Part shown: piece after piece, positions 2,942-29,063 of the stretch
Layout: each line of letters opens with the position of its first letter
How positions within the stretch are numbered: position 1 is the first letter of the stretch
Translations under genes and position numbers: made by a program
Notes under the pieces: generated by a model
Databases searched by the model: none
What the model was told of the DNA's origin: nothing
Seen by the model: only the letters and a program-made list of their open reading frames with translations
Assembly (NCBI RefSeq): GCF_000195975.1
Contig: NC_005070.1
Coordinates: 2,340,001 to 2,372,000, forward strand
Source: Parasynechococcus marenigrum WH 8102
Lineage (GTDB): Bacteria; Cyanobacteriota; Cyanobacteriia; PCC-6307; Cyanobiaceae
Direction of reading: 5' to 3'
Length of the DNA stretch: 32,000 nucleotides

Positions 2942-2970
2942 CTATTCACTTCAATAAAATACAAAACGCA

Positions 2971-3150: not shown

Positions 3151-3203
3151 CACTTCCTCCAATTGAAGACATCACTATTGTCATGCCAACACGAAAAAGA
3201 ATT

Positions 3204-3217: not shown

Positions 3218-3440
3218 GAAACATCCACACTGTGTGAACTCTCAGACTTCTGCAGCGATCAACCCACACTGCCAGACCAAACAGAGCAGGATCGCAACTA
3301 TAAAGTCGCCAAAGCTACCAAACCTATAGCATCTGTATCACGGTGTCTAAACGAAATCTGAAACCATCTCCAATCCGTGCCCAATCCAACACTCCACTGG
3401 CGCCGAATTCCGCAAAGTGGGATCATTCTGGGTTCCCCAC

Positions 3441-3689
3441 ATGATTGAGTGCGTCTACCGCAACGACACCGACCGAATGGTGATTGTTAAGTGTGTCGGG
3501 GACGACAACTTTTACCGTGAAAAGGTTGTACTCCCCACAGAGATGTTCTGGTTTGAAGCTCCTGAGCAGGCGCGGCTTGAAATTTGGAAGATGTCGGTGA
3601 GCGGTCAGATGCTTCACGTACGCGCCGATGTGAGCGAGTACGCCATGAATCAAAATGAGGCGGCCACCGAAACACTCTGGGCCTGCTGA
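3441..3689 (+). CDS. DUF1830-family cyanobacterial protein
   Basis: ORF 3417..3689 begins with GTG and an in-frame ATG lies at 3441. MIECVYRNDTDRMVIVKCVGDDNFYREKVVLPTEMFWFEAPEQARLEIW matches the DUF1830 pattern as I recall it (C-x-Y-x-N ... ERVVFPG..L.FEAP..A.LEI). Confidence 0.65.
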   Translation: MIECVYRNDTDRMVIVKCVGDDNFYREKVVLPTEMFWFEAPEQARLEIWKMSVSGQMLHVRADVSEYAMNQNEAATETLWAC

Positions 3690-3710
3690 TCAAGGTAAGA
3701 GCCGTGGGGA

Positions 3711-12372: not shown

Positions 12373-14082
12373 ATGCCCTACCGCATCTCCCGCCAGGCCT
12401 ACGCCGAGACCTACGGACCCACCACCGGCGACAGGGTTCGCCTGGCCGACACCGATCTGATCCTGGAAGTCGAGAAGGACTACACCGTCTACGGCGATGA
12501 GGTGAAGTTCGGCGGCGGCAAGGTGATTCGCGACGGCATGGGCCAATCCCAGACCCCTCGAACCGAGGGAGCCGTCGACACGGTGATCACCAATGCTCTG
12601 ATCCTCGACTGGTGGGGCATCGTCAAAGCCGATGTCGGCCTCAAGGACGGCCGGATCGTGGGCATCGGCAAAGCCGGTAACCCCGACACCCAGCAAGGGG
12701 TGACGATCGTGGTGGGTCCCGGCACAGAAGCCATCGCCGGGGAGGGCCACATCCTCACGGCCGGTGGCATCGACACCCACATCCACTTCATCTGCCCCCA
12801 GCAGATCGAAACAGCCCTAGCCAGCGGGGTCACCACCCTGATGGGCGGCGGCACTGGACCAGCCACCGGCACCAATGCCACCACCTGCACCCCTGGGGCG
12901 TTTCACATCGGCCGGATGCTCCAGGCCGCTGAAGGCCTGCCGGTGAATCTGGGCTTCTTCGGCAAAGGCAACGCCAGCACCCCGGAAGCCCTGGAGGAAC
13001 AGGTGCGCGCCGGTGCCTGCGGCCTGAAGCTGCATGAAGACTGGGGCACCACGCCGGCCACGATCGATGCCTGCCTGTCGGTGGCCGATCGGATGGATGT
13101 GCAGGTGTGCATCCACACCGACACCCTGAACGAAGCCGGCTTCGTGGAAGACACGATCGCCGCTATCAAGGGACGCACCATTCACACCTTCCACACCGAA
13201 GGTGCCGGCGGTGGTCATGCCCCGGACATCATCAAGATCTGCGGTGAGGCCAACGTGCTGCCCAGCAGCACCAACCCCACCCGGCCATATACCCGCAACA
13301 CGCTCGAGGAGCACCTCGACATGCTGATGGTGTGCCACCACCTCGACCCGAAGATCCCCGAGGACGTGGCCTTCGCCGAATCACGGATCCGGCGCGAAAC
13401 GATCGCCGCCGAAGACATCCTTCATGACCTCGGCGCCTTCTCGATCATCGCCAGCGACTCCCAGGCCATGGGCCGCGTGGGCGAGGTGATCACCCGCACC
13501 TTCCAGACCGCCCACAAGATGAAGGTGCAGCGCGGTGCATTGCCGGAAGACTCCGCACGCAACGACAACCACCGGCTGACGCGCTACATCGCCAAGGTGA
13601 CGATCAACCCGGCGTTGGCCCACGGCATCAGCAGCGAAGTGGGGTCGATCGAAACCGGCAAGCTCGCGGATCTGGTGCTGTGGAAACCGGGCTTCTTCGG
13701 CATTCGCCCGGAACTGGTGGTGAAGGGGGGTTCGATCGTGTGGGCCCAGATGGGCGATGCCAACGCCTCGATTCCCACCCCCGGCCCGGTGCACGGCAGG
13801 CCGATGTTCGGCGCCTTCGGCAAAGCCCTCGCCCCCAGTTGCCTCACCTTCGTGAGCGAAGCAGCGATGGACAACGACATCCAATCAAAACTCAGGCTTG
13901 ACCGAACCTGCATGGCGGTGAAGGAGACCCGCAGCGTGGGCAAGAGCGCCCTCAAGCTGAATGCAGCGCTACCCAAGGTGAGCGTGGACCCGCAGACCTA
14001 TGAGGTGTTCGCCGACGGTGAACTGCTCACCTGCGAGCCCGCCGAGGTGCTGCCCCTCGCCCAGCGCTATCTGTTGCTGTAA
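12373..14082 (+). CDS. ureC: urease alpha (catalytic) subunit UreC
   Basis: 569 aa with [44 protein letters not shown] and MVCHHL motifs. Confidence 0.97.
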
Positions 14083-14138: not shown

Positions 14139-14181
14139 GTATCAAGATGAACAACATTCAAGAATTCATCCCCTGCATAAT
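14139..14181 (+). promoter_or_regulatory. candidate NtcA-type promoter upstream of the DUF4278 mini-gene
   Basis: GTATCAAGATGAAC (GTA-N8-AAC, 14139..14152), then 23 nt, then CATAAT (14176..14181), in an AT-rich gap downstream of ureC. Confidence 0.45.
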
Positions 14182-14285
14182 TATTTTGCAGCAACTGCTA
14201 CAGACGTTCACCTCGCCAGCCTCGGCAAGGCGCAGTTCGACTCAGGCCATGGAACGGGGACCTGAGCTTGCTTCGAGGAACCACC

Positions 14286-14453
14286 ATGACGACTCTTCTC
14301 TACAGAGGACACGCCTACCAGCAGGTCAAAGACGCTGCTCAACAGCAGGGCGTGCAACTCACCTACCGCCGCAACGTGTATCAAGCCCGCCAGGCTGATG
14401 TGCGTCAGGCCCAGGTTCAGCTCACCTATCGGGGTGTCAGCTACCTGCGCTGA
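14286..14453 (+). CDS. DUF4278-family small protein (55 aa) with three L-x-Y-R-x-x-x-Y repeats
   Basis: ATG 14286 is preceded by GAGGAA; the track ORF begins at TTG 14268. The LTYRGVSY motif is typical of DUF4278. Confidence 0.6.
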   Translation: MTTLLYRGHAYQQVKDAAQQQGVQLTYRRNVYQARQADVRQAQVQLTYRGVSYLR

Positions 14454-14464
14454 AACCCGCTTCT

Positions 14465-15139
14465 TCAGGCGACAAGCCGGTTGAGCATGGGCAATTCCAG
14501 CAGTTCATCGCGCCACTGCTGAGCCCATCGATCCTGGCTGCGTTCGTAGAGCTCCATCAGCTCCTCGACCGCACCGGAGCGGAAGTCAACGCGAAGGTCC
14601 AGCAACGGAAATGCCGCTTCGCCGCTCACCTGCAGAGCGGCGGATGTGCAGCTTGATGCGCGTTGGTCGCCACCAGCCTGCTCTCCTGCCTGCAGGGCCG
14701 TCATCAAACGACGGCCCAGTTTCCAGTTGGGATCACTGGTGAGAAACGTCTGTTCCATCGCCTCCAGCACCACTTCGCCAGCCAGGCAATTTCCCGCAAC
14801 CGAAAGGTTGGGATGGTGCCGATGACCCGCCCATCCGCCGCACTCAACTCCAGTCCAGCAAGCAGTCCGGCCATCAAGATCGATCAGATGGAACTGGCGC
14901 CAATCCCGTTGGGGGTCATCCAGCAGAAGGCTGTTCAGCACATCCTGCGCATCCGCATGATGTTCAAGACGCTCCAGTCCGCAAATTCCCAGATAAGGAT
15001 TGGTGTGGGCTTGGGTTGCAACGGCACCTACTCCAGATCGGATGTGGGGAACAGTGGAGCCCACAGCCAGGTGACAGGTCGCCACGGCAACGCCGAAACG
15101 ACCGTTGTTGGGATCACGCGCCAGGATTGAGAAGGTCAA
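14465..15139 (-). CDS. DUF1028-family Ntn-hydrolase-fold protein
   Basis: The MTFSILARDP N-terminus (Thr2 as putative nucleophile) is characteristic of DUF1028. TTG start overlaps the upstream stop by 4 nt (TTGA). Confidence 0.7.
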   Translation of the reverse strand: MTFSILARDPNNGRFGVAVATCHLAVGSTVPHIRSGVGAVATQAHTNPYLGICGLERLEHHADAQDVLNSLLLDDPQRDWRQFHLIDLDGRTACWTGVECGGWAGHRHHPNLSVAGNCLAGEVVLEAMEQTFLTSDPNWKLGRRLMTALQAGEQAGGDQRASSCTSAALQVSGEAAFPLLDLRVDFRSGAVEELMELYERSQDRWAQQWRDELLELPMLNRLVA

Positions 15140-16452
15140 GACAGCTCGCGATCCAAACGCTGCAGAGTCCCCAGCAAGACGGCAGCCCCAGCCCAGCAGT
15201 GCTCGTCACTGGTGAATTCCTTGGATGAGTGGCTAACCCCACCACGGCTGGGGACGAAAATCATTCCCATCGGCCAGCGACGTCCGATCTCCTGCGCATC
15301 GTGACTGGCACGGCTGGGAAGGTGGCTATGCGACAACCCCAGATCCTCTGCAGCAGAAACGATCGCTGCCATCACTCCATCCGCTGCAGCTGTGGGTTCC
15401 ACCTCAAATTGAGGTTCCAACTGGATCGGGCATCCGGTTTCGGCACCGATCCGCTCCAACTGCTGCATCAACTCAGCCACCAACTGATCGAGCACAACTG
15501 AATTCACATCCCGGAGGTCAACGGTCAGCGCCACTGAGCCAGGCACCACATTGGCGGCGTTGGGCCAGACCTCGAGTCGTCCGACTGTGGCAACGGGATC
15601 ACCTGGGTGCTGTCTGGCCATCGTCTCCACCGCCAGCACGATCCGGGACGCCGCCACCAAAGCGTCTTGCCGCAGCTTCATCGGCGTGGTGCCGGCGTGG
15701 TTCGGCTGACCATCCACCTGGATGCTGAAACGGCGTTGTCCCACAACGCCCTCCACCACACCGATGGCGTCACCGCGTTGCTCGAGCACGCCTCCCTGTT
15801 CCACATGGAGCTCGAGAAAAGCAGCACAGGCGTCGTCCGCCCGACGTGCTGAGACCAGCGATGGCCAGTGACCACCGATACGAGCGAGATTGTCCTCGAT
15901 CGGTTCCCGATTGCTGGTGGCATAGGCCTTGGGGTCACAGGAAGCCGTACCGGCCATGCCCTTGCACCCGACCATCGTCGATTCCTCATCGGCGAAGGCG
16001 ATCAACTCGAGATCGTGCTGAAGACGAATGCTGTTGTCCTGCAGGGAGCGACAAACTTCAAGACCTGCCAAAACCCCCAACACACCGTCAAAACGACCAC
16101 CGGTGGGAACGGTGTCGAGGTGGGAACCGGTCATCAGTGCTGGGCGATCCGGATCCAACCCCTGAAGCCGACCGATCAGGTTGCCCGCCGTATCGATCCG
16201 AACCTGAAGGCCAGCCTCGTTCATCCATCGGGCCAGCAAGGAACGTCCCGCAACGTCCTCAGTCGAGAAACCCCGTCGACAGACGCTGCCATCGGGCTGC
16301 AGCCCAATGGCAGCCATTTCAGCCAAGGAGTGCATCAGACGCTCACGGTTGGGTCGAATGCCCACCTGTGCTTTCGACCGAGCAGTGACCTGGCGAGTGG
16401 TCAGGAGGGACGGCAATGCAGTGGCCTTCAGATCAAAAGATCGAATCACCAT
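15136..16452 (-). CDS. M20-family Zn amidohydrolase of the allantoate amidohydrolase / N-carbamoyl-L-amino-acid hydrolase / beta-ureidopropionase group
   Basis: GSHLDTVPTGGRFDGVLGV, FADEES, ELHVEQG, HAGTTPM and PSRGGVSHS motifs; 438 aa. Confidence 0.85.
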   Translation of the reverse strand: MVIRSFDLKATALPSLLTTRQVTARSKAQVGIRPNRERLMHSLAEMAAIGLQPDGSVCRRGFSTEDVAGRSLLARWMNEAGLQVRIDTAGNLIGRLQGLDPDRPALMTGSHLDTVPTGGRFDGVLGVLAGLEVCRSLQDNSIRLQHDLELIAFADEESTMVGCKGMAGTASCDPKAYATSNREPIEDNLARIGGHWPSLVSARRADDACAAFLELHVEQGGVLEQRGDAIGVVEGVVGQRRFSIQVDGQPNHAGTTPMKLRQDALVAASRIVLAVETMARQHPGDPVATVGRLEVWPNAANVVPGSVALTVDLRDVNSVVLDQLVAELMQQLERIGAETGCPIQLEPQFEVEPTAAADGVMAAIVSAAEDLGLSHSHLPSRASHDAQEIGRRWPMGMIFVPSRGGVSHSSKEFTSDEHCWAGAAVLLGTLQRLDRELS

Positions 16453-16511
16453 CGCCGCAGCGACCCAAACGCCCTGTCGTCAATGCGACGTTTTAACCCT
16501 CACCAAAGAAT

Positions 16512-18536
16512 TCAAACGGGCATCAGCACCCGCCACCCGAGGCGATCGGCCTGCTCACGAGCCTGGGCTGGCACATCGGCCGCTACAAACATCCGATGCA
16601 GCATCTGGACACCCAGGAGGTGGTTGATGACGGCATCCATCTGAACCCGCTCGGCGTCGGTGGTGGCAGGGTCGTCGTGGCGCGCAAACAAGGCACGCAC
16701 GCCCTCTTTGCTCAACAACCCAGCCGCATCAATCGCTTCATCACTCAGGTAGTCATCAGCCAACTGCTTCATTTGCGCCCACTTCTCGGGCTCGGTGTGG
16801 GCCGGGGGCGCCATGAAGGCAAATTTTTCGCGCTTGTAAAGCACCTCCGGCAGCAGACCCGCCATGGCCTCCCGCAGCACATATTTCTCAGTTTTTCCCT
16901 TGATCCGCAGCTCCGGAGGCACTTGTACCGCCGCAGCCGCCAGATGGTGATCCAGGAAAGCCGGCCGTGCCTCCATGGAGTTGGCCATGTCGACGCGATC
17001 ACCTCCCCAGGTGAGGATCTGGCCTTCCAACATTGTTTTGATCCAGACGTACTGAGCCTTGTCGAGGGCATGGCGACCATCGAGTTGCTGGGGATTCAAC
17101 TGCTCAGCAATGGCTTTACCTGGCGAGTACTCCACCAACGCCTGACGGTGCTCGTCAGCCAGCAGATCCGGCACCAGCGGCGCGCAGGCCAGCCAGGGCT
17201 GCAGACAGCTGGGGGTGAAGCCCACCACGGCATCAAGATCGGGATCATCCACCTGATCAGCCGCCAGCATTGCTCCCTGCACCAGGGAATTGTTGGTCTG
17301 CAGCAGAGACTCCCAATCCTGGCGATCGCTCTGCGGCAGGTCCTCCAGACCATGGAGGAACATGTCACGCCGGAACGCGGGATAGCCACCGAACAGCTCG
17401 TCTGACCCTTCCCCAGTCATCACGACTTTGTAGTCGACACTATTGACATGGCGACTCATTAAGTATTTGGCCACAGCCAAGGTGTTGTAGATCGTGCGCT
17501 CGGTATGCCAGAGCGTTTGTTCCATGTGGCCGTACAACTCACGACCCGACAGACGCATGACGTCCTGCTCGGCACCGGTGGCCTCCGCCATCTCCGCAGC
17601 AATGGGTGTTTCGTCGTAGCGCGCATCATCGAATCCGATCGTGAACGCCTTGACGGGACCCTGACTCACCGCCGAAGCAAGACCGAGGATCGAACAACTG
17701 TCGATTCCGCCTGAGAGATAACAACCCACGGGCACGTCGGCCACCATCCGCATCTCCACCGCTTCCAGCAGAGCAGCACGAACATTGGCGATGTGATCAG
17801 CCTCCGTGAGGGTGCTGTCCCGCTGATCCAAACGTGGAAAATCGACATCCCAGTAGGTCGACTCCGACACCTCCAGCCGGTCACTCCTGCGCTGCACCTT
17901 CAGCACATGACCAGGCTGAACTTGGTGCACCCCGGCGAAGGCGGTCGTTCCCGGGACCATGGTCTGCATCAACTGATGAAAGAGACCCTCCGACGTGAAG
18001 CGTCGCTCCACGGCCTGGTGAGCAAACAGCACCTTCAACTCGGAGCCGAACACCAACCCCTCCGGCGTCATCGTCCAGTACTGGGGCTTGATGCCGAAGC
18101 GATCCCTCACCAGATAGAGACAGTCATCCGCCGCATCAAACAGAGCAAAGGCGAATTCCCCCCGCAGCAGAGGCAACGTGGACTCGAGACCCTGCCGTTG
18201 ATACAGGCGCAACAAAATCTCGGAATCACTCTTCGAGGAGAAACGCACTCCCTGGGCGGTGAGATCAGCACGGATGCGCTGAAAGTCGTAGAACTCGCCG
18301 TTGTGCGCCATCAGCACCTGCCGGTCGTTGCTGAGAAACGGCTGACGTGCCCGGGATTCGTTCAGATCAATAATCGACAACCGGGCATGACAGAAGCCGA
18401 CACCGGCTGCGTCGAGGCATTCCACACCGAAACCATCCGGTCCGCGATGGGACTGGATGGCCGCCATGTTGACCAACAGCTGGCGATCCAACGTCTGATG
18501 ACGATCCGCCAGAAACACACCTCCGATTCCGCACAT
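16512..18536 (-). CDS. asparagine synthetase B-type glutamine-dependent amidotransferase (long, 674 aa)
   Basis: N-terminal MCGIGGVF (Cys2 Ntn glutaminase) and PP-loop SGGIDSC. It starts 9 nt after the upstream transcarbamylase gene. Confidence 0.85.
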   Translation of the reverse strand: MCGIGGVFLADRHQTLDRQLLVNMAAIQSHRGPDGFGVECLDAAGVGFCHARLSIIDLNESRARQPFLSNDRQVLMAHNGEFYDFQRIRADLTAQGVRFSSKSDSEILLRLYQRQGLESTLPLLRGEFAFALFDAADDCLYLVRDRFGIKPQYWTMTPEGLVFGSELKVLFAHQAVERRFTSEGLFHQLMQTMVPGTTAFAGVHQVQPGHVLKVQRRSDRLEVSESTYWDVDFPRLDQRDSTLTEADHIANVRAALLEAVEMRMVADVPVGCYLSGGIDSCSILGLASAVSQGPVKAFTIGFDDARYDETPIAAEMAEATGAEQDVMRLSGRELYGHMEQTLWHTERTIYNTLAVAKYLMSRHVNSVDYKVVMTGEGSDELFGGYPAFRRDMFLHGLEDLPQSDRQDWESLLQTNNSLVQGAMLAADQVDDPDLDAVVGFTPSCLQPWLACAPLVPDLLADEHRQALVEYSPGKAIAEQLNPQQLDGRHALDKAQYVWIKTMLEGQILTWGGDRVDMANSMEARPAFLDHHLAAAAVQVPPELRIKGKTEKYVLREAMAGLLPEVLYKREKFAFMAPPAHTEPEKWAQMKQLADDYLSDEAIDAAGLLSKEGVRALFARHDDPATTDAERVQMDAVINHLLGVQMLHRMFVAADVPAQAREQADRLGWRVLMPV

Positions 18537-18545
18537 CAGTTCGCC

Positions 18546-19733
18546 TCAGATCACATCCATCACGCGCTCGGCACGATTCACCATGCAGGTGAGCAGTGCC
18601 ATGCGCACAAACACCGCCCCACGCGCCTGGCTGAAATACCAGTTGTGCGGCGTGTCATCGAGACAGGTGCTCAGCTCGGGACCCCGGGCCAGGGGATGCA
18701 ACACGATCGCCTCCGGCTTGAACGGCAGATCCCGGGTGAGACGAAATCCACCGCCGTGCACCTCGTAGCTGTCGCCAACCCAGGCAATCGCATTGATGTA
18801 GACGACATCCAGATCGGGAATCTCAGCAGCCAGATCTGAACTGCAGCGGATGGACATCCCGCTTGCTTCCAGTTCCTCCAGCTGGCCTGGATCAAACAAA
18901 GGCGCTTCCGACTCCATCTCGGGCGCATGGATCACCACCACCTCCTCCAGGATCTGGGGGAATTTGCTGAGGATCCGCAGCAGCGAACGCACGGTGCGCA
19001 TCCGCGACGGCAAACCGATCACCCCGATGCGGATCCGATCCTTCGGGGAGACCTCTTTCGAAGCAAGGCTTGGACGCCATTTGAACATCGTGTAGAGATC
19101 CGCCATCGCCTGTGTCGGATGCTCATCAATGCCATTACCGGCATTGATGATCGGAATCCGCAGGGTGGAACTCATGGCGTACACGGCCTCCGGATTGCTG
19201 TCGCGTAGCACCACGCAGTCGCCGTAGTTGTTGAACATGTGCGCCACGTCCTCGAGCGACTCCCCCTTGGCGATGCCGGTGGTGCTGCGATCGGTGATGT
19301 TGATCGAATCACCGCCGAGGCGATGCCAGGCGCTGTCGAAGGAAAGGCGTGTGCGCGTGCTGGGCTCGTAGAACGCGTTGATCAGGATCTTGCCGGTGAG
19401 CGGCGTGTTGTGCCGGCAGTAACGGTCTGGGTTGCTCTCGAATTTCGCCGCCAGTCGAAACAACTGGAGCAGGGTTTCAGCACGAAATGCCTGAATCGAC
19501 ACCACGTGTTGATCGACAAGATCCACCAACGGCTCACCGTCTTCAGCAATTGCGGCCAAAAGCTCCTGCGGCTGATTGTGGCCGAACACATCAGGACCCA
19601 TCGGCTGGAAGCGGAGCGGCGCCGAAGCCTCCTCGATCACGGCTGTGTGGGGTTGTGCCATAAGCATTTGCATCAACACCCGATTTGCCAGATCGCGTGA
19701 TGTGCCATGAATCACATCATCCTTCGCTAACAA
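18546..19733 (-). CDS. ATCase-like transcarbamylase of unknown acceptor specificity (start codon uncertain)
   Basis: STRTR and HPTQ carbamoyl-phosphate motifs, RTVRSL (R167 equivalent), HPLAR, and C-terminal TPHNWYFSQARGAVFVRMALL close to E. coli PyrB [21 protein letters not shown]. The track ORF begins at TTG 19733. In-frame ATGs lie at 19673 and 19601. Confidence 0.8.
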   Translation of the reverse strand: MLAKDDVIHGTSRDLANRVLMQMLMAQPHTAVIEEASAPLRFQPMGPDVFGHNQPQELLAAIAEDGEPLVDLVDQHVVSIQAFRAETLLQLFRLAAKFESNPDRYCRHNTPLTGKILINAFYEPSTRTRLSFDSAWHRLGGDSINITDRSTTGIAKGESLEDVAHMFNNYGDCVVLRDSNPEAVYAMSSTLRIPIINAGNGIDEHPTQAMADLYTMFKWRPSLASKEVSPKDRIRIGVIGLPSRMRTVRSLLRILSKFPQILEEVVVIHAPEMESEAPLFDPGQLEELEASGMSIRCSSDLAAEIPDLDVVYINAIAWVGDSYEVHGGGFRLTRDLPFKPEAIVLHPLARGPELSTCLDDTPHNWYFSQARGAVFVRMALLTCMVNRAERVMDVI

Positions 19734-19768
19734 CGAACCAGCACCCCTGACCAGCTTAAAAGAAGTTC

Positions 19769-19805
19769 TTTATACAAATAACTGGCAAATAGTTCGAATG
19801 AATAC
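19769..19805 (-). promoter_or_regulatory. candidate promoter of the transcarbamylase operon (NtcA-like site plus strong -10)
   Basis: The minus strand reads GTATTCATTCGAAC (GTA-N8-AAC, 19805..19792), then 17 nt, then TATAAA (19774..19769). The spacing is shorter than the canonical ~22 nt. Confidence 0.35.
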
Positions 19806-19837
19806 CAAATCCGCCGCAAATTGTTCACTTTGAACAT

Positions 19838-19984
19838 TCACCAGACGCGTCCATTGCGCCACTCAAACCACCAAATCACCAGCAATGCGAGCACAGAACA
19901 GACGAGCGCCACCTGGCTTCCCACCAGGACCAGACCGAACCAGTGTTGATCCACCAGAACCGTGAGCAGCAACGCATTGGCCAT
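19838..19984 (-). CDS. unlisted 48-aa single-TM mini-ORF immediately downstream of the symporter
   Basis: My translation: MANALLLTVLVDQHWFGLVLVGSQVALVCSVLALLVIWWFEWRNGRVW. The ATG lies 5 nt after the symporter stop. It is below the ORF-track length cut-off. Confidence 0.35.
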   Translation of the reverse strand: MANALLLTVLVDQHWFGLVLVGSQVALVCSVLALLVIWWFEWRNGRVW

Positions 19985-19989
19985 GGCGT

Positions 19990-21420
19990 TCACACCCCCT
20001 CTTGCAGACGATTGAAATCAAACCCTTCCGGCTGCCAGCGGCTGCCCACCACCATCACGACAGCCGAAACGGCTGCGGAGAACACTGCCGCGCAATAGGG
20101 AGCAATCAGAACGTAAGCCGATAGTCCGACGGCACTGCCGGCTGCCATGGCGACGATCGCTGCCCAACGATTGGCAGAAGACCAGTAGAGACCGCAAGCC
20201 ACAGGCCAGACCGTGGAGGCCACCAACGCACCGGTGAAGAACAGCACCGACGCCAACGAATCCAGTCGCGGCCAGGACAGGGCCAGGGTGAGAACAGACA
20301 GGCCAACCACCATCTGCCGGGCCGCCTGCTTGAGCTGTGCATCGCTCGCCTGAGGGCGCAGCAGACGGAAATAGACGTCTTCCGCCAGCAGATCCGCCGT
20401 GGACGCCAACAGCGAATCCAGGGTGGAGGTGAGTGACGCGAAGACCACCACAAACACCAGTGCCGCCCCACCAGCCCCCAGAAGATCGGCCGCCATTACA
20501 GGGAACACCATGTTCACCTGCTCCAGCGGCAGGTCCCTGGCCAGCGCCACCAGACCGATCGATCCCGTCACCAGGGGGATACTCATCCAGGCCAATCCCC
20601 CCAAGACAAACGAGGTCATCACCACACTGCGCCGGCTGGCGAACACCCGCGACCACCAGATGTTGTTGTGAAAGACCTCACCCATCGAGAACAGGGCGGA
20701 ATTCCAGGCGATCAGCAGACCAGCCGGAAGCAAGAGATCCAGCCGGTCAGGGTGCGTACTGATCAAGCGAGCATGCACCTCCGGCATCGGGAACTGACGG
20801 AACGCCAGCACCGCCACCACCGCCAGCAACACCATGATCAGCAGCGACTGGATGAAATCGGTTCCGATCACTGCCCGCATGCCACCGAACAGGGTGTAAA
20901 CGGTGGAGACGCCGATCACCACCACCATGCCTACGTGGTAATCGAAGCCGGAGAGCGCCTGAAGCAACAGACCGGCCCCCATGGCCTGGGTCATCAGAAA
21001 ACCGAGGGTGTACACAGCGGTGATCACCATGAACACCCACCACGCCAGGCGCCCGTAACGCAACCGGATGAAATCGCCACTGGTGCGGCCATGCGGCATC
21101 AGCTGCTTGATCCGCACGGCCAGCGGCGCGAACAGGATCAAGCCCAGACCGGCCAGGGCATAACTGAACATGCCCCAAAGACCAGTCCTGTAGCCGAATT
21201 CCGGAGCCAGCAGTGTGGTGTTTCCGGTCACCCAGGAGGCCATCAGCGTGGCCGTGCTCAACGCCAACCCGATGTTGCGTCCGGCCAGCATGTAGTCGTC
21301 GGCATCTCCTTTACCGCGGCGGCCCCAGACGATCCCCAAGGCGATCCACAGCACGGAAAACAACACAACCAGGGCCCAGGCGATGCCAGGCGCCAGAAAA
21401 GGTGCGGCGTCAGCGGGCAT
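19990..21420 (-). CDS. sodium:solute symporter (SSS) family transporter
   Basis: About 476-aa polytopic protein with an SSS-like N-terminal region (YMLAGRNIGLALSTATLMASWVTGNT...). I prefer ATG 21420; the track ORF starts at GTG 21438. Confidence 0.85.
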   Translation of the reverse strand: MPADAAPFLAPGIAWALVVLFSVLWIALGIVWGRRGKGDADDYMLAGRNIGLALSTATLMASWVTGNTTLLAPEFGYRTGLWGMFSYALAGLGLILFAPLAVRIKQLMPHGRTSGDFIRLRYGRLAWWVFMVITAVYTLGFLMTQAMGAGLLLQALSGFDYHVGMVVVIGVSTVYTLFGGMRAVIGTDFIQSLLIMVLLAVVAVLAFRQFPMPEVHARLISTHPDRLDLLLPAGLLIAWNSALFSMGEVFHNNIWWSRVFASRRSVVMTSFVLGGLAWMSIPLVTGSIGLVALARDLPLEQVNMVFPVMAADLLGAGGAALVFVVVFASLTSTLDSLLASTADLLAEDVYFRLLRPQASDAQLKQAARQMVVGLSVLTLALSWPRLDSLASVLFFTGALVASTVWPVACGLYWSSANRWAAIVAMAAGSAVGLSAYVLIAPYCAAVFSAAVSAVVMVVGSRWQPEGFDFNRLQEGV

Positions 21421-21535
21421 CGACCGACCCCCGATCACGCCAGTGCAGATGGCCCTGAATGATCATCGCCACCGTTGCCAGGGTCACCGCAGCACCGAGG
21501 GCAAAGACCAGTCCAGCCCAGAGATTGTCATCCAA
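21410..21535 (-). CDS. unlisted 41-aa single-TM mini-ORF overlapping the symporter start
   Basis: TTG 21535 is preceded by AAGAGGAGA with a 7-nt spacer. The product is (M)DDNLWAGLVFALGAAVTLATVAMIIQGHLHWRDRGSVDAR. Its TGA (21412..21410) overlaps codons 3-4 of the symporter, which suggests translational coupling. Confidence 0.35.
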   Translation of the reverse strand: MDDNLWAGLVFALGAAVTLATVAMIIQGHLHWRDRGSVDAR

Positions 21536-21669
21536 AGCGAATCTCCTCTTCAGCAGATCTCAGACAAGCAAATCGCGGTGTTCTTGAGCTTGCATTCACG
21601 AATAACAAGTCGCTGGCGCTACCCAAATCACAGGCTGTCAGCGCACTGATGCCTTCAATCTCGAAATGT

Positions 21670-21683
21670 GTAGCAATCACAAC
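21670..21683. promoter_or_regulatory. GTA-N8-AAC motif in the divergent gap between the symporter unit and the ATP-grasp operon
   Basis: GTAGCAATCACAAC shares GTAGCAAT with the site upstream of nrtP. I found no well-spaced -10 box on either strand. Confidence 0.2.
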
Positions 21684-21733
21684 CCGCGGGGCCCTGATCG
21701 AGTTTTTGGATGCGCCTATTCATCGTTCAGGCA

Positions 21734-23206
21734 ATGTTCACCGAGTACCGACCAACCCATGGGTACGACGAATATTTTTGCCGTGAACAGTCCGCTCCCC
21801 GCGCTGATCTGGAGCCGCTGCTGTCCTCCCTTGGAGCCATGGGGCTGGCGGAACTGAATCGCAGTCATGCATCAGCGAGCAATCTGTTGCGACGTCTTGG
21901 CGCCACCTTCCGACTCAACGGATCAGGTCTGCATGGCGGAGAGCGGATCCTTCCCTTCGATCCACTGCCAAGACTCATTCACCGTCAGGAATGGTCCGTT
22001 CTGGAGCGCGGATTGGTGCAACGCCTGGAGGCCATTGATCAGTTTCTGGCGGACGTTTATGGACCCCAACGGATCCTCAATGATGGCGTGATCCCCCGTG
22101 AGGATGTGGAGAGCTCCCAGGGCTGGCGGCCCCAGATGCAGGACATCGCCGTGCCGCTCAACCGCTGGTGCCACATCTCAGGTCTGGATCTGATCCGCGA
22201 TGGCGACGGCACCTGGAGGGTTCTGGAGGACAACCTGCGCTGCCCCTCTGGCGTGGCTTATTTCCTTGAGAACCGTCGGGTGATGAAGCGGTTGTTCCCC
22301 AGCCTGTTCCAAGGGCGAACCGTGCAGCCGATCGACGATTACCCCTCCCATCTCTTGCGCACGTTGCAGGATCTGGCTCCTTGGAGTGATGCCCCACGGG
22401 TGGTGCTGCTCACCCCCGGCGTGTTCAACAGCGCCTACTTCGAGCACAGCTATCTGGCCCAGCAGATGGGCATTGCCCTGGTGGAAGGCCGCGATCTGAT
22501 CTGTGAAGACGGACGCGTCTGGATGCGCAGCACGGCCGGTCGGGAACCTGTGGATGTGATCTACCGGCGCATCGATGACGATTTCCTCGATCCGAACGTG
22601 TTCCGACGCGATTCGATGCTCGGTGTCCCCGGCCTCATCGATGCCATGCGCTCCGGTCGGGTGGCCATCGCCAACGCCCCTGGGAGCGGTGTCGCTGACG
22701 ACAAGCTGATCTATGCCTACGTGCCGGCCATGATCCGTTACTACCTCAACGAAGAACCGATCATCGACAACGTCCCCACCTATCTCTGCTCAAGGGACGA
22801 CGACCGCCGTTATGTGCTCGAACATCTCAACGAACTGGTAGTGAAATCAGTCGCCGAGGCAGGCGGCTACGGAATGTTGATCGGGCCCCATGCCAGTTCT
22901 GAGGAGATTGAGAGCTTCGCGGTGAAGATCAAGGCTCACCCGCGCAATTTCATCGCCCAGCCCACCCTGCAGTTATCCACAGTTCCATCCCTGAGCGAAG
23001 GGGAGCTGTACCCCTGCCATGTGGATCTGCGCCCCTACGTGCTCCGGGGTAAAAGCGACTGGGTCAGCCCCGGCGGCTTGACTCGTGTAGCCCTGAAACG
23101 CGGTTCCCTTGTGGTGAACTCCTCCCAGGGGGGCGGCTGCAAGGACACCTGGGTGGTCAGCGACAGTGCCGTAACGGCTGGCAATCAGGAGCTCGTGCCG
23201 TGCTGA
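21734..23206 (+). CDS. circularly permuted type-2 ATP-grasp protein (DUF404/DUF407 family)
   Basis: MFTEYRPTHGYDEYF...ERILPFDPLPRLIHRQEWSVLERGLVQRLEAIDQFLADVYG...VLEDNLRCPSGVAYFLENRRVMKRLFP matches the family pattern as I recall it. An alternative ATG lies at 21710. Confidence 0.85.
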   Translation: MFTEYRPTHGYDEYFCREQSAPRADLEPLLSSLGAMGLAELNRSHASASNLLRRLGATFRLNGSGLHGGERILPFDPLPRLIHRQEWSVLERGLVQRLEAIDQFLADVYGPQRILNDGVIPREDVESSQGWRPQMQDIAVPLNRWCHISGLDLIRDGDGTWRVLEDNLRCPSGVAYFLENRRVMKRLFPSLFQGRTVQPIDDYPSHLLRTLQDLAPWSDAPRVVLLTPGVFNSAYFEHSYLAQQMGIALVEGRDLICEDGRVWMRSTAGREPVDVIYRRIDDDFLDPNVFRRDSMLGVPGLIDAMRSGRVAIANAPGSGVADDKLIYAYVPAMIRYYLNEEPIIDNVPTYLCSRDDDRRYVLEHLNELVVKSVAEAGGYGMLIGPHASSEEIESFAVKIKAHPRNFIAQPTLQLSTVPSLSEGELYPCHVDLRPYVLRGKSDWVSPGGLTRVALKRGSLVVNSSQGGGCKDTWVVSDSAVTAGNQELVPC

Positions 23207-24183
23207 GCCGTGTGGCCGATTCGCTGTACTGGATCAACCGGTATGTCGAGCGGGCCGAAAACATCTCCCGGTTTCTGGAAGTAAGCGAAGCCATGGCCCT
23301 GGATTGCCCCCCCGGCAGCGCTGAGCCCTGGCTTCCCCTGGTGGATGCCAATGGGGACCGCAAGCGGTTTGACGAGGCCTATCCCCAATGCACACCACGG
23401 GACGTCGTCAGCTTTCTGCTGCTGGATCGCGACAACCCCAACAGCATCGTGAGTTGCATCGCCAACGCCCGTGAGAACGCTCGCCAAATCCGCGATGTGA
23501 TCACCACGGAAATGTGGGAGCAGCTCAATGACCTCTATTGGAACGTTCAAGACGGTGAGGCGCTCTGGCAGGAGCCGGATCAAGAACAGCTGCGCAGCAT
23601 CCGACGCGGATGTCAGCTCTTCTACGGCATCACGGACGTGACCCTCAGTCGTGATCAAGCCTGGCTGTTCAGCCAGCTGGGACGGCTGATCGAACGGGCA
23701 GACAAAACCTCCCGCATCCTCGATGTGAAGTACTTCCTTCTGTTGCCAACGCCAACGGAGGTGGGCGGCGTTCTCGATGAATTGCAGTGGATCTCACTGC
23801 TTCGAACAGCTGGGGCTTATCAGATGTATCGCCAGAGCGTGCAGCAGGCGATCACACCAGCATCAGTTGCACGATTCCTGCTCCTGGATCCGATCTTTCC
23901 CCGTTCGGTCCGCTTCTGCCTGCAACAGATCAACGAGACGCTGCAACGCATTCAGAGGAAACCCCACACCGGCCCACCGGATGACCTGGAATGCCTGGGC
24001 GGTCAGTTGCTCGCCCAATGGAGCTACGTCCGCATCGACGCTCTGATCGAACGCGGACTGCATGAGGCCATCGATCAACTGCAAAGCGATCTGAACCGAC
24101 TGCATGGCCTCATCCACCGTTGCTACTTCACCACCACCGACCTGGGCTCCATCCCCACCGAGCCGTCATGCGCGCTGAGCTGA
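23200..24183 (+). CDS. alpha-E domain protein (DUF403)
   Basis: MLSRVADSLYWINRYVERAENISRFLEV is the hallmark alpha-E N-terminus. The GTG start overlaps the ATP-grasp stop (GTGCTGA). Confidence 0.85.
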   Translation: MLSRVADSLYWINRYVERAENISRFLEVSEAMALDCPPGSAEPWLPLVDANGDRKRFDEAYPQCTPRDVVSFLLLDRDNPNSIVSCIANARENARQIRDVITTEMWEQLNDLYWNVQDGEALWQEPDQEQLRSIRRGCQLFYGITDVTLSRDQAWLFSQLGRLIERADKTSRILDVKYFLLLPTPTEVGGVLDELQWISLLRTAGAYQMYRQSVQQAITPASVARFLLLDPIFPRSVRFCLQQINETLQRIQRKPHTGPPDDLECLGGQLLAQWSYVRIDALIERGLHEAIDQLQSDLNRLHGLIHRCYFTTTDLGSIPTEPSCALS

Positions 24184-25067
24184 ACCATCGCCTCACATAT
24201 CGCTACGAGGCTCCCGTGCAGCTCGGAGAACACCGCCTCTGTCTGCGGCCCCGGGCCCAGGGCCATCAACGGCTGATCCACCACACACTGCAGATCACAC
24301 CGGAACCCTTCCACAGCCATGAGCTGTTGGCCGCCAGTGGCGATGCGATCGAGCGCGTGCGCTTCCGAGGCAGCACCGATTTGCTGCAGCTCGAAGCCAG
24401 GAGCTTGGTGGAAACCCGGCAGGCCGCACCGCTGCTCACATGTTTCAACGGACTTGAACCCTCGCTTCCCTATCCGCGCGGTCTGCTGAACCACGACCTA
24501 CTGGGGGCTCTGGAAGGGTGGTTGCCCAACGGTCAACACGACCCCTCAGCTGTGGAACTGGCGCAGGACGCTCTGATGGGAAGCAATCAGCAGGTGCTGC
24601 CTTTTCTCCAGCAACTGATGGAGATGATCCAGGACCGGGTCAAGTACACCCAGCGCCATGTGGGCCCAGCCTGGCCAGCGGGCAGGACCTTGCGGGAGCG
24701 TGTGGGCTCATGCCGTGATCTGGCGATGCTGATGATGGAGTGCTGCCGCAGCGTGGGGCTGCCGGCTCGGTTTGTGAGTGGTTACCACCTGGCCGAACCA
24801 GCACCTGAGACCTACGACCTTCACGCCTGGACCGAGATTTATCTGCCGGGTGCCGGCTGGCGCGGTTTTGATCCAAGTGCAGGTGGTGAAATTACCTCGC
24901 GCTACATCGTGCTTGTCAGTTCCTCCAAACCGGATCTCAGTGCAGCGGTTCAGGGAAGCTTTACAGGACCCCCAGCAACGACAAGCCACCTGAGCTGGAC
25001 CATTGACGCGGATGTCGAACCCAGACCGGTCGCTTCGTCCAGCCAAACCATGGTTCAGGCCGCCTGA
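24168..25067 (+). CDS. transglutaminase-like cysteine peptidase family protein (N-terminal Bact_transglu_N-type region plus core)
   Basis: ATG 24168 (MRAELNHRLTYRYEAPVQLGEHRLCLRPR) overlaps the alpha-E gene by 16 nt. A Cys-His-Asp triad is visible: GSCRDLA, LHAWTEIYLPGAGW, GFDPS. Confidence 0.85.
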   Translation: MRAELNHRLTYRYEAPVQLGEHRLCLRPRAQGHQRLIHHTLQITPEPFHSHELLAASGDAIERVRFRGSTDLLQLEARSLVETRQAAPLLTCFNGLEPSLPYPRGLLNHDLLGALEGWLPNGQHDPSAVELAQDALMGSNQQVLPFLQQLMEMIQDRVKYTQRHVGPAWPAGRTLRERVGSCRDLAMLMMECCRSVGLPARFVSGYHLAEPAPETYDLHAWTEIYLPGAGWRGFDPSAGGEITSRYIVLVSSSKPDLSAAVQGSFTGPPATTSHLSWTIDADVEPRPVASSSQTMVQAA

Positions 25068-25546
25068 AGCAGCGGCTCGACACCATGGAGACGGGGAGGC
25101 GGAGCCTGAATCGAGGTGACCGCTAACAGCGCTGGAATGCGGGCACTGTTGTAGACGCGGAATTCCTGCACCAACGACACCCCCTCCTCCCGGACCGCCT
25201 GGTTGAGAACCACCGAACCGTCGGGATCAGATACCGAGCGGTGAAACGTTCCGGGTGGAATGCGCAGGATGTCGCCGCCACTGTCGAGACGCACGATGTG
25301 GAACGGCTGATCCCAGGCCAGGTTGACGAGGTAGAACGTTCGCCCACCACTGGCGGCCAGAAGATTGTCTTCCTGGTGTGGATGGAGATAGAACTGCCAG
25401 GCCCCGCTGTCGGGATCGTTGGGTGGACTGGTGGCCGGGCCACTGTGGATCACCAGATCGCGGGCATTGGAGGTGTCCACCGTAACGTCGAAAAAACGCA
25501 CCGCTGGTGTGTCGCGGAAGCGTTCATAGGCCAGCAGTTCAAACAT
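25055..25546 (-). CDS. cupin-fold protein of unknown function
   Basis: GDILRIPPGTFH fits cupin motif 2 (G-x5-P-x-G-x2-H) and YLHPHQED is motif-1-like. I prefer ATG 25546 (MFELLAYERF); the track ORF starts at TTG 25630. Confidence 0.5.
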   Translation of the reverse strand: MFELLAYERFRDTPAVRFFDVTVDTSNARDLVIHSGPATSPPNDPDSGAWQFYLHPHQEDNLLAASGGRTFYLVNLAWDQPFHIVRLDSGGDILRIPPGTFHRSVSDPDGSVVLNQAVREEGVSLVQEFRVYNSARIPALLAVTSIQAPPPRLHGVEPLLQAA

Positions 25547-25626
25547 CTCCAGGGGCGTGACAAAGCCCAAGCTCTGACATGGTTGTACTGGGGTTATCGA
25601 AGCAAAACGGTGACGGTGGCAACGGT

Positions 25627-26667
25627 TCAACCACCGAGATAAGCCATTTCGGCATGGGGCATGGAACCGGTCGTCTGCTGGCGCTCATCGCTGTAACGGT
25701 CGTCACGGCGCCGCCAGAGATCAGCAACCAGCCGCAGCAATTCCGCCTCACAGTGCAGAGCGGGTTTCAGATCAGTCCCCACCGACGCGAAGAGGCAGCG
25801 GAACGCCTGTCCATCAGCTGTGACCCGCAGTCGATTGCAATCCCCGCAGAACGGCTCGCTGATCGAGGCGATCACGCCGAGATGTCCACCACCATCGACG
25901 TAACGCCAACGCTGAGCTGTTCCGCCGGTGGGTCGGCCAACTGCCTGAAGCGGCCACCGTGCCCTGATCCGCGTCACCATCTCCGCCGCTGACAGCACCT
26001 GATCCAGCCTCCACTGATTGCGGTTGCCCACATCCATGTACTCAATCAGGCGCAATTCCACACCTTGATCACGAGCCAGATCCGCCAGAGGCAGAAGCTG
26101 ATCCTCATTCACCCCCCGTTGGATCACGGCATTGAGCTTGAGTTCCCCCGCCAAAGGGTCAAAACCAGCGGAACGAGCCGAAGCCAATCCACCGAGTACC
26201 TTCCGCGCCAATGAATCCCCCGCTGTGGCAGTTGGTCGTCCTGCCATCCGCGCCACCACAGCCCCATCCACGCCATCAAGGCTCACGGTGATGCGATCCA
26301 AACCGGCCTGCCTGAGATCGCAAGCTCGCTGGTCGCTCAGCAAGGTCCCATTGGTGGTGAGGGCCACCTGCTGAAGACCCTGCAGTGGATCGCCAGGCGT
26401 TGCCCGTGCTGCCGCGATTGCCTGCAACAGGGGGAGAAGCCGAGCACTGAGCAACGGCTCGCCACCGGTAAGCCGCAGGCTGTGGATCCCCAGCCGGCAG
26501 GCAACACGAATCAGGCGCAGCTGCTGCTCCAGGCTGAGCAAATCCGGCGGATCCTCAAGATCCGGACAGCAGTAAGGACAGGCCAGGTTGCAGCGGGCCG
26601 TCAACGACAACCGAAGCACTCTCAACGGCCGCGACCGCTGATCGACAAGCGCTGAAGCTGGTGTCAT
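25627..26667 (-). CDS. moaA: GTP 3',8-cyclase MoaA (radical SAM, molybdenum cofactor biosynthesis)
   Basis: CNLACPYC (C-x3-C-x2-C) near the N-terminus and a C-terminal FCGDCNRLR cluster. ATG 26667 forms an ATGA overlap with the mobA stop. The longer track ORF would run into mobA. Confidence 0.9.
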   Translation of the reverse strand: MTPASALVDQRSRPLRVLRLSLTARCNLACPYCCPDLEDPPDLLSLEQQLRLIRVACRLGIHSLRLTGGEPLLSARLLPLLQAIAAARATPGDPLQGLQQVALTTNGTLLSDQRACDLRQAGLDRITVSLDGVDGAVVARMAGRPTATAGDSLARKVLGGLASARSAGFDPLAGELKLNAVIQRGVNEDQLLPLADLARDQGVELRLIEYMDVGNRNQWRLDQVLSAAEMVTRIRARWPLQAVGRPTGGTAQRWRYVDGGGHLGVIASISEPFCGDCNRLRVTADGQAFRCLFASVGTDLKPALHCEAELLRLVADLWRRRDDRYSDERQQTTGSMPHAEMAYLGG

Positions 26668-27405: not shown

Positions 27406-27522
27406 GAAGTCGTTCCCTGTTGATTGATTAACTGCCCGAGTTAACGGATTTTTTTCGACCGTTTCGCCACCCACGGGCACCCTTTCGTTTTGAAGCCCGC
27501 GGTTTCAACATTTCTCTTCTCA

Positions 27523-29063
27523 ATGCTTGGCGACCTCTGGTCGTTCCAGGGCAGGTACCGAACCCTTCACCTCACCTGGATCGCCTTCTTCCTGACCTTT
27601 GTGGTCTGGTTCAACCTGGCCCCTCTGGCCACCACCGTGAAAGCGGACCTGGGACTGACCGTTGGTCAGATCCGCACAGTGGCCATCTGCAACGTGGCCC
27701 TCACCATTCCTGCGCGCGTGCTGATCGGCATGCTCCTCGACAAGTTCGGACCCCGGATCACCTACTCGTCGATCCTGGTGTTCTCAGCGATTCCCTGCCT
27801 GCTGTTTGCCTCCGCTCAGAGCTTCAACCAGCTGGTGGTGGCCCGTCTGCTGCTCTCCATTGTTGGCGCCGGCTTCGTGATCGGCATCCGCATGGTGGCC
27901 GAATGGTTCCCGCCTAAGGAAATCGGCCTGGCTGAAGGCATCTACGGCGGCTGGGGCAACTTCGGCTCCGCCTTCTCCGCCCTCACGATGGTTGCCCTCG
28001 CTGGCTTCCTCTCCTTCTCCGGCGGCTTCGAACTGCCCACCGGCACTGTTCTGAACTGGCGTGGTGCCATCTCCCTCACCGGCATCGTCTCCGCCGTTTA
28101 CGGCCTCTTCTATTTCTTCAACGTCACCGACACCCCCCCGGCAAGACCTATCAGCGCCCTGAGAAAACCGCAGGCCTGGAGGTCACCTCCATGCGCGACT
28201 TCTGGGGTCTGCTCGGCATGAACGTGCCCTTCGCAGCCATCCTCTGCGTGCTCTGCTGGCGTCTCGGCAAGGTGGGCTTCCTGACTCCGTCCACCTACCC
28301 ACTGGCTCTCGGGGCTGTTGCCGTCTGGTTTGCTTTCCAGACCTGGGGAATCATTCGCACCAACCGCGACCTGATCCTCGGCAACAAGGTCTATCCCAAG
28401 GAAGACCGCTACGAGTTCCGCCAGGTAGCGATCCTCGAGCTCACCTACATCGTGAACTTCGGCTCCGAACTGGCCGTGGTTTCGATGCTGCCCACCTTCT
28501 TTGAAACCACCTTCGATCTGCCGAAGGCCACCGCCGGAATCCTGGCCTCCTGCTTTGCTTTCGTGAACCTGGTTGCCCGCCCTGCCGGTGGTCTGATCTC
28601 CGACAGCGTCGGCAGCCGCAAGAACACCATGGGCTTCCTCACCGCCGGTCTCGGCGTGGGCTACCTGGTGATGAGCATGATCAAGCCCGGCACCTTTACC
28701 GGCACCACCGGCATCGCCGTTGCCGTGGTGATCACCATGCTCGCCTCCTTCTTCGTGCAGTCCGGTGAAGGCGCCACCTTCGCGCTGGTGCCCCTGGTCA
28801 AGCGTCGCGTCACCGGTCAGGTGGCCGGCCTGGTGGGTGCCTACGGCAACGTTGGTGCTGTGACCTACCTGACCATCTTCAGCCTTCTGCCGATGTGGAT
28901 GGGCGGCGGCGGCGAACCCACCCCCGAGGTGATCGCGGCTTCCAACAGCGCCTTCTTCCAGATCCTGGGCGTGGCCGGTCTGATCGTGGCCTTCTTCTGC
29001 TTCTTCTTCCTCAAGGAGCCCAAGGGATCTTTCGCGGAACTGCATGAAGGCGAAACCGCCTGA
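27523..29063 (+). pseudogene. nrtP: nitrate/nitrite MFS permease NrtP (NapA), frame broken by a 1-nt deficit in a C7 run (true pseudogene, split gene or homopolymer sequencing error)
   Basis: Two track ORFs (27490..28221 and 28191..29063) are the N- and C-halves of one MFS transporter. Frame 1 reads ...NVTDTPPARPISAL... and stops at 28221. Reading the other frame back from 28191 gives PPGKTYQRPEKTAGLEVTSMRDFWGLLG. The frames meet at CCCCCCC 28133..28139. One extra C would give a continuous 513-aa protein. Confidence 0.8.

Follow-up and report, generated by a model that had tools for sequence, protein, structure and literature searches.

A three-gene, Anbu-less ATP-grasp, Alpha-E and transglutaminase-like operon with a conserved NtcA-like promoter box in the nitrogen-assimilation island of marine Synechococcus

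Three adjacent genes in a 32,000-nt stretch of the Parasynechococcus marenigrum WH 8102 genome (contig NC_005070.1, positions 2,340,001 to 2,372,000 of the forward strand; the whole stretch is called the window below, and positions are counted from its first nucleotide) encode a circularly permuted type-2 ATP-grasp protein (gene 1), an Alpha-E protein (gene 2) and a transglutaminase-like protein (gene 3), together referred to as the triad. They belong to a system of ligase, helical partner and cysteine hydrolase that is already described and widespread, and that Iyer et al. in 2009 reportedly predicted to be a peptide-ligase system. The operon of this family, COG2308-COG2307-COG1305(-Anbu), was defined by Valas and Bourne (2008; PMC3235984), who also found COG2308 in genomes without Anbu and who recorded in a note in proof that the operon was the most up-regulated gene set in nitrogen-limited Pseudomonas putida. 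Induction of P. putida PP_2685 and PP_2688 under nitrogen limitation is reported elsewhere (PMC8050072, Table 2), and the homologous cluster of Burkholderia cenocepacia shows strong NtrC- and sigma-54-dependent expression (PMC5491218). The ATP-grasp orthologue of Yersinia bercovieri releases phosphate from ATP (PMC6376114), while structural studies of Anbu did not find peptidase activity and a 2021 paper still describes Anbu as having no known function (PMC8665760). An earlier reading of the window from its letters alone (the sequence-only reading) had credited Iyer, Aravind and co-workers with predicting a ligation and removal, or tagging, system, and had held that its substrate and physiological role were undemonstrated. 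Both statements stand: the prediction of a peptide ligase with a tag-removing peptidase is restated in PMC3495828, PMC5666114, PMC6376114 and PMC3597751, and the full-text literature to 2026 yielded no demonstrated substrate or role for the system, in agreement with the 2021 statement on Anbu, and no paper on the system in picocyanobacteria.

The WH 8102 triad is the minimal, Anbu-less form of this COG2308/COG2307/COG1305 system. The domain identities proposed in the sequence-only reading were borne out by Pfam and by matches to solved structures (discussed below): gene 1 matched CP_ATPgrasp_2 (PF14403, E 7e-167, 555 bits where the cut-off is 32) and CP_ATPgrasp_1 (PF04174, E 1.6e-145, 485 bits), gene 2 covered the whole Alpha-E profile (PF04168, E 7.5e-100, 335 bits), and gene 3 matched both Bact_transglu_N (PF08379, 3e-18) and Transglut_core (PF01841, 7.5e-20); NCBIfam had no model for genes 1, 2 or 3. 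All three are open reading frames (ORFs) of the forward strand, the first and third with alternative starts (21710/21734-23206, 23200-24183 and 24120/24168-25067), and direct reading of the junctions gave the same overlaps as the sequence-only reading. Genes 1 and 2 overlap by 7 nt (GTGCTGA, 23200-23206, with the GTG of gene 2 at 23200 and the TGA of gene 1 at 23204-23206), genes 2 and 3 overlap by 16 nt (24168-24183, with the ATG of gene 3 at 24168 and the TGA of gene 2 at 24181-24183), and an AGGAG element lies 8 nt 5' of the gene 2 GTG. Such overlaps support co-transcription and possible translational coupling, but they do not show the stoichiometric co-expression that the sequence-only reading had taken them to imply. 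For gene 1 we prefer 21734, the position given in the sequence-only reading, as the probable start over the gene callers' 21710, because the ATG at 21710 is not kept in frame in other species and lies 5' of the predicted transcription start. The triad has the same GC content as the adjacent genes, the same 299-aa gene 3 product is called in public assemblies, and the Alpha-E protein of the window is found identical in many of them. Locus tags SYNW2450-2452 of WH 8102 were considered as names for the triad and rejected, SYNW2450 being an unrelated small ORF.

Relatives were sought by scanning one genome per species, which gave 345 relatives, and the best 80 of these, covering marine Synechococcus and freshwater Cyanobium-type lineages, were analysed; among them the nearest species representative is WH 8017, with 92% identity in the Alpha-E protein. 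A comparison of neighbourhoods across cyanobacteria, which the sequence-only reading had suggested as a check, found order and overlaps conserved in the 74 loci that hold all three genes. The triad is colinear on one strand in every one of the 74, the 7-nt overlap is kept as [AG]TG[CT]TGA in 67, and the second overlap is of either 16 nt (51 loci) or 28 nt (21 loci), 72 of the 74 in total. Identity to the window proteins across these picocyanobacterial loci ranges from 77 to 98% for gene 1, from 69 to 95% for gene 2 and from 57 to 87% for gene 3, and all three genes are therefore maintained.

Upstream of gene 1 lies an NtcA-like box followed by a -10-like hexamer (Table 1). After a search for the canonical GTAN8TAC had given none, we used a relaxed GTA-N9-AC search with controls, which placed a box at -62 to -69 in 65 of 66 related loci, as compared with a background of 2% per random 70-nt window of the same loci. 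The box consensus reads T.CGTAGCAAC....ACC.G; positions 1-3 and 13-14 of the box and its spacing to the hexamer are kept, and the flanks are otherwise variable. The hexamer occurs at the same spacing in related loci with the pattern [CT][AT][TG]GAT, freshwater lineages having CATGAT or CAGGAT. Boxes of the same type precede nrtP in 26/26 loci, mobA in 23/27, the aspartate carbamoyltransferase (ATCase)-like gene in 7/10 and the symporter gene in 9/10, with nrtP, mobA and urtA serving as positive controls, and are nearly absent before the negative controls, which are internal or unrelated genes (moaA 0/29, narB 1/21, ureG 1/20, ureC 1/35, gene 2 1/78 and gene 3 1/78). Within the window, the boxes of nrtP (GTAGCAATTCCAAC, 27392) and urtA (GTATCAACCGGAAC, 8921) show the same departure from the consensus as that of the triad. 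The candidate NtcA boxes found 5' of operon-leading genes in the window are all GTA-N8-[A/C/G]AC variants.

In class II NtcA-activated promoters the box is reported to be centred near -41.5, with a -10 element some 22 nt further on and with no -35 element (PMC5714215). The hexamer of the triad stands exactly 22 nt 3' of its box, as this geometry would require. Adding 41.5 nt to the box centre at 21676.5 predicts a transcription start near 21718, which would put the hexamer exactly at -12 to -7. From this architecture and its conservation we infer that NtcA binds the triad box and induces the operon. A sigma-70 promoter and terminator scan of 21300-25800 returned no promoter and only such terminator-like matches as are expected by chance, with no terminator-like site between gene 3 and the convergent minus-strand gene for a 163-aa protein; the main text of the Synechocystis NtcA chromatin immunoprecipitation sequencing paper does not mention the triad families.

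The window as a whole is a nitrogen-assimilation island of marine Synechococcus. Its gene order begins with urtEDCBA, ureGFE and ureD-ABC, continues through a cassette of DUF1028, M20 peptidase, asparagine-synthase-like and ATCase-like genes to a sodium:solute symporter gene and the triad, and then runs through the 163-aa gene, which has no Pfam family, to moaA, mobA, nrtP, narB and a nitrate-reductase-associated gene. This setting recurs: ureC lies 5' of the triad on the same strand in 40 of the 40 loci where ureC was found (82-3737 nt away), the cassette and symporter block stands between them, as in the window, in nine loci with enough upstream flank, and in marine strains the 163-aa gene, moaA, mobA, nrtP and narB follow 3' of the triad. 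The sequence-only reading had called the placement near nitrogen genes suggestive, and the case is now stronger, given a conserved position running from urease through the triad to the nitrate genes and a conserved NtcA-like promoter.

Table 1. Coordinates, strand and basis of the triad genes and of the elements associated with them (positions in the window)
Feature	Position	Strand	Basis
Gene 1, circularly permuted type-2 ATP-grasp protein, 490 aa, predicted ATP-dependent amide ligase	21734..23206	+	Pfam, PDB 3n6x
Gene 2, Alpha-E protein, 327 aa, GTG start	23200..24183	+	Pfam PF04168
Gene 3, transglutaminase-like Cys-His-Asp protein, 299 aa	24168..25067	+	Pfam PF08379 + PF01841
NtcA-like box GTAGCAATCACAAC (GTA-N8-AAC), 64 nt 5' of gene 1 ATG	21670..21683	+	Conservation across loci
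-10-like hexamer TTGGAT, 22 nt 3' of box	21706..21711	+	Sequence read, spacing conserved
AGGAG Shine-Dalgarno-like element for gene 2, within gene 1 3' end	23187..23191	+	Sequence read directly
Catalytic triad codons of gene 3: Cys182 24711-24713, His219 24822-24824, Asp235 24870-24872	24711..24872	+	Alignment
13-nt convergent 3'-end overlap of gene 3 and the minus-strand 163-aa gene; boundary of the unit, not a functional part	25055..25067	.	ORF positions

We propose, tentatively and with slightly less than even confidence, that the triad is an NtcA-driven, coupled operon whose ATP-grasp and Alpha-E proteins ligate a peptide or protein substrate and whose Cys-His-Asp enzyme reverses or transfers the bond, the whole serving nitrogen economy. 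When combined nitrogen is scarce, NtcA would activate the dedicated promoter through the box, giving one mRNA with three translationally coupled genes. The ATP-grasp enzyme would use ATP to form an acyl-phosphate and join an amino acid or short peptide, via an amide or isopeptide bond, to a peptide or protein, with Alpha-E as its non-catalytic or substrate-positioning partner, and the Cys182-His219-Asp235 enzyme encoded by gene 3 would cleave or transfer the linkage through an acyl-enzyme thioester. Ligase and hydrolase would then make up a write/erase module through which proteins or peptides are turned over or re-allocated when nitrogen is limiting.

This proposal draws support from the family identity of the proteins, the operon coupling seen in 74 species-level loci and the phosphate release by the Y. 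bercovieri orthologue (PMC6376114); from a box and hexamer spaced as in the canonical geometry, with their 65 of 66 loci against the 2% background and their controls; from the fixed position of the triad 3' of ureC and 5' of moaA-mobA-nrtP-narB; and from independent experiments in P. putida and B. cenocepacia, where nitrogen limitation induces the homologous cluster through another regulator, NtrC/sigma-54. Two things favour a polypeptide substrate: the proteasome-like Anbu is a frequent fourth gene of the system, and the Aravind group reads this transglutaminase-like clade as tag-removing peptidases (PMC3495828). The interpretation of the triad given in the sequence-only reading is supported; to it we add the conserved NtcA-like box of the triad, the boxes at nrtP and urtA, the lack of Anbu here and the fusions in other phyla described below.

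Several points weigh against the proposal. The literature to 2026 reports no substrate, product or phenotype for any family member, pull-downs in Y. bercovieri gave no stable complexes among the operon proteins (PMC6376114), the operon has no gene for a small tag protein, and marine Synechococcus have no proteasome homologue, so that a tag cannot be an Anbu degradation signal. The transcription start near 21718 is itself a prediction implied by the box geometry, the box departs from GTA-N8-TAC at position 12, where only 5 of 65 loci have a T, and the canonical GTAN8TAC is absent from the whole 32 kb window. The 80 loci, moreover, belong to a single clade, so the counts of conservation do not represent independent events.

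That single origin of all the loci, together with a box lacking the T of TAC and a poor -10-like hexamer, is what would be seen if the nitrogen context were inherited synteny, the upstream motif no NtcA site and the operon constitutive housekeeping unrelated to nitrogen, and the proteins of the Pseudomonas Anbu operon have indeed been reported as constitutive at a moderate level (PMC5666114). Such an account, however, has to explain why positions 1-3 and 13-14 of the box, like its distance from the hexamer, are kept where the flanks are free to vary, and why the same box type occurs in the same loci only before operon-leading nitrogen genes; it must also accommodate nitrogen-limitation induction in two proteobacterial genera and a deltaproteobacterial locus that adjoins nasA/nirBD-like genes. 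We regard it as quite improbable.

The proposed ATP-dependent ligation and its reversal would depend on the three proteins, whose structures and conserved residues we examined in turn. PDB 3n6x, the sole return of a PDB profile search at E <= 10 and the only solved homologue of gene 1, aligns over residues 38-477 (E 9e-156). It was deposited as a 'putative glutathionylspermidine synthase', a name that gene 1 does not support, since no link to glutathionylspermidine synthetase could be detected; gene 1 gave no GSP_synth match at E <= 1e-3 and no detected similarity to any characterised ligase, and it has no amidase domain. An AlphaFold2 (AF2) model of gene 1, built on a shallow alignment (78-98% identity), reached a mean confidence (pLDDT) of 42.8 and was not used in searching for fold neighbours.

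The name under which 3n6x was deposited does lend something to the idea of a small-molecule pathway, in which the triad makes, remodels or breaks down a nitrogen-containing metabolite or short non-ribosomal peptide, such as a conjugate of gamma-glutamyl or polyamine type, or an organic nitrogen compound that the cell scavenges, by a logic like that of glutathionylspermidine synthetase/amidase or the closthioamide enzymes. Closthioamide biosynthesis combines ATP-grasp, cysteine-protease-family and transglutaminase-family enzymes to build a small peptide (PMC7183216), genes that import or catabolise small nitrogen compounds surround the triad (a urea transporter, urease, a sodium:solute symporter and the nitrate genes), and the cells have no proteasome homologue. 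Gene 1, on the other hand, matches the CP_ATPgrasp models only, no carrier protein, oxidoreductase, transporter or accessory enzyme is consistently linked to the triad, and Anbu accompanies the triad in many other bacteria. Co-variation of the three triad domains with domains of urea metabolism, reported from marine metagenomes (PMC3597751), could be read in the same direction but is explained by the fixed place of the triad beside urease in picocyanobacteria. Taken together, a small-molecule pathway is the main alternative, possible although we lean against it, and a polypeptide substrate remains our preferred reading.

Gene 2 keeps all the residues that are invariant in the Alpha-E family (W11, R14, E17, R18, R24, S82, G143 and E165, compared with 36 diverse members of a family that comprises about 6,600 representative clusters at 50% identity). 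R166, nearly invariant in the family, is present as well, E165-R166 forming the ER motif of LERADK (23692-23697). The AF2 model of gene 2 is an all-alpha bundle (pLDDT 84) with no significant fold neighbour in the PDB, and the C-terminal tail of Alpha-E is variable and of low confidence in the model.

In gene 3, the motifs GSCRD, HAW and FDPS carry Cys182, His219 and Asp235 and line up with the catalytic motifs in two solved transglutaminase-like proteins, PDB 3isr and TgpA (6g49), which agrees with the sequence-only reading in pointing to an intact Cys-His-Asp triad. Since this is also the catalytic set of transglutaminases, gene 3 might act mainly as a protein-glutamine deamidase or transglutaminase that releases NH3 from the side chains of glutamine or cross-links proteins in nitrogen starvation, with the ATP-grasp and Alpha-E proteins as accessory or regulatory factors, as raised by Piasecka et al. 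(PMC6376114). The nitrogen-limitation induction seen in proteobacteria would fit, but the invariable coupling or fusion of an ATP-dependent ligase and Alpha-E with the hydrolase would go unexplained, a cell would gain little net nitrogen by deamidating its own proteins, and the Aravind group reads the prokaryotic members of the clade as peptidases (PMC3495828). We therefore think this role very improbable for gene 3 and keep to a hydrolase or transferase acting on the linkage made by the ligase. A defence-system reading was also considered and rejected: none of the three proteins matched the PADLOC anti-phage defence models, and viral contigs yielded no close relative of gene 1.

A tblastn search with two Anbu-like proteins (from the distant loci L081 and L082) gave no match in the window or in the 80 loci, and Synechococcus WH 8102 is listed without a proteasome homologue (Valas and Bourne, 2008, Table 1; PMC3235984), so the core triad must function without Anbu. 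The same gene order (ATP-grasp, Alpha-E, transglutaminase-like) is seen in distant phyla, with Anbu in the neighbourhood in Planctomycetota and in a deltaproteobacterial metagenome-assembled genome whose locus adjoins nasA/nirBD-like genes. Deltaproteobacteria, Poribacteria and Acidobacteriota also have fused ATP-grasp::Alpha-E proteins (844-889 aa) beside transglutaminase-like genes, and these natural fusions argue that ligase and Alpha-E act as one unit. A sigma-54-like GG-N10-GC is plausible in two of four distant loci (L081 at -70 and L082 at -58), a sample too small to be evidence. The proposal can be taken further, to a self-contained, proteasome-independent system of post-translational protein tagging in the abundant picocyanobacteria of the ocean that is switched on by NtcA under nitrogen limitation, whose amino-acid or peptide tag is written by the ATP-grasp and Alpha-E proteins and erased by the transglutaminase-like peptidase, that re-allocates proteome nitrogen, and that was independently wired to NtrC/sigma-54 in proteobacteria; in this full form we consider it unlikely.

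Among the distant loci, L082 (1-1872 and 6557-10025), L083 (6549-16066) and L084 (6356-12669) each carry two paralogous modules side by side, one with separate ATP-grasp and Alpha-E genes and the other with the fusion and a transglutaminase-like gene. The Anbu-like gene of L082 lies in its separate-gene module, and nasA/nirBD-like genes adjoin that locus; L083 also encodes a 1116-aa transglutaminase-DUF2126 protein.

Several other features of the window deserve mention. The DUF1028, M20 peptidase, asparagine-synthase-like, ATCase-like and sodium:solute symporter genes form a minus-strand block (14465-21438) present in about 10 of the 80 loci. One NtcA-like box precedes the ATCase-like gene (at 19792-19805) and another the symporter gene (at 21609-21622), and the block may possibly constitute an uncharacterised organic-nitrogen utilisation pathway. 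On the other side of the triad, the conserved 163-aa protein (25055-25546, minus strand; 59 of 80 loci) shows weak cupin/ARD similarity (E 0.07), and its gene is the last of the mobA-moaA operon in the window. Its 3' end overlaps that of gene 3 by 13 nt in a near-palindrome, TCAGGCCGCCTGA, and both proteins therefore end in Gln-Ala-Ala. In the nrtP gene (27490-29063, plus strand) the reading frame is broken near 28140-28221, leaving two ORFs that overlap in different frames, whereas the L001 orthologue is in a single frame; the split is either a real frameshift, making nrtP a pseudogene, or an assembly error.

Two RNA matches were also recorded. A Glutamine-II riboswitch (14202-14266; Rfam RF01704, 64.5 bits) lies in a plus-strand feature region (14139-14453) that begins with an NtcA-like box, GTATCAAGATGAAC, at 14139, 5' of the riboswitch, and ends with a small ORF (14268-14453) with repeated YRG motifs, which fits the 'downstream peptide' type. 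L015 and L019 have similar riboswitches in the interval separating ureC from the triad, and L002 has one following the 163-aa gene. A match to the Helicobacter '5' ureB sRNA' (RF02514, 169 bits; 12528-12814, minus strand) lies antisense within ureC and recurs in seven further picocyanobacterial loci; its most likely cause is that the urease coding sequence is conserved, and not a real small RNA. Finally, two ORFs of 203 and 425 aa without a Pfam match (766-2880, plus strand) adjoin a stretch of lower GC content (2001-4000; 0.53-0.58, compared with about 0.61 for the window).

Few gene sets in Pseudomonas and Burkholderia are induced by nitrogen limitation as strongly as the homologous cluster, which was defined in 2008-2009. 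To a specialist the NtcA-type promoter conserved in front of the triad, and the fixed place of the triad between the urease and nitrate genes, will be useful, if unsurprising, additions. The picocyanobacterial version is the simplest form of the system, with three unfused genes and no Anbu, from which it follows that the core function needs no proteasome-like partner. Control by NtcA, where other bacteria use NtrC, would be a second, independent regulatory line pointing to nitrogen economy, and solving the function would reveal one more part of how marine phototrophs of global importance respond to nitrogen stress.

Tubulin TTL ATP-grasp ligases with their de-tagging peptidases, and the Pup ligase PafA with Dop, pair a ligase with a reversing hydrolase much as we propose for the triad. 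PafA and Dop have a glutamine-synthetase-like fold and not an ATP-grasp. Unlike these systems, the triad has no known tag, target or degradation machine, and its operon holds no small tag protein gene. The analogy of an ATP-dependent amide ligase with a bond-reversing hydrolase has been drawn by the Aravind group (PMC3495828). The closthioamide enzymes CtaD (ATP-grasp), CtaG (a papain-like transacylase) and CtaJ (a transglutaminase homologue) likewise cooperate in amide-bond chemistry (PMC7183216), but that pathway uses phosphopantetheinyl carrier proteins and a decarboxylase within a secondary-metabolite cluster, none of which is linked to the triad. Closer likenesses lie within the family itself. 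The Poribacteria and Acidobacteriota loci (L083 and L084) have an extra fused module and a second transglutaminase-like gene, whereas the Synechococcus locus is a single unfused set. B. cenocepacia I35_5080-5083 (BCAM1233-1236) has the same families, namely ATP-grasp (DUF404/407), Alpha-E (DUF403) and transglutaminase-like. The Anbu operon of Pseudomonas putida, Pseudomonas aeruginosa and Y. bercovieri (PP_2688-PP_2685; COG2308-COG2307-COG1305-Anbu) has the same three families in the same order; it too is linked to nitrogen limitation and has no known function, but, unlike the Synechococcus triad, it ends with Anbu, a proteasome-like Ntn-hydrolase, and Pseudomonas-type operons answer to NtrC/sigma-54 where the triad is predicted to answer to NtcA.

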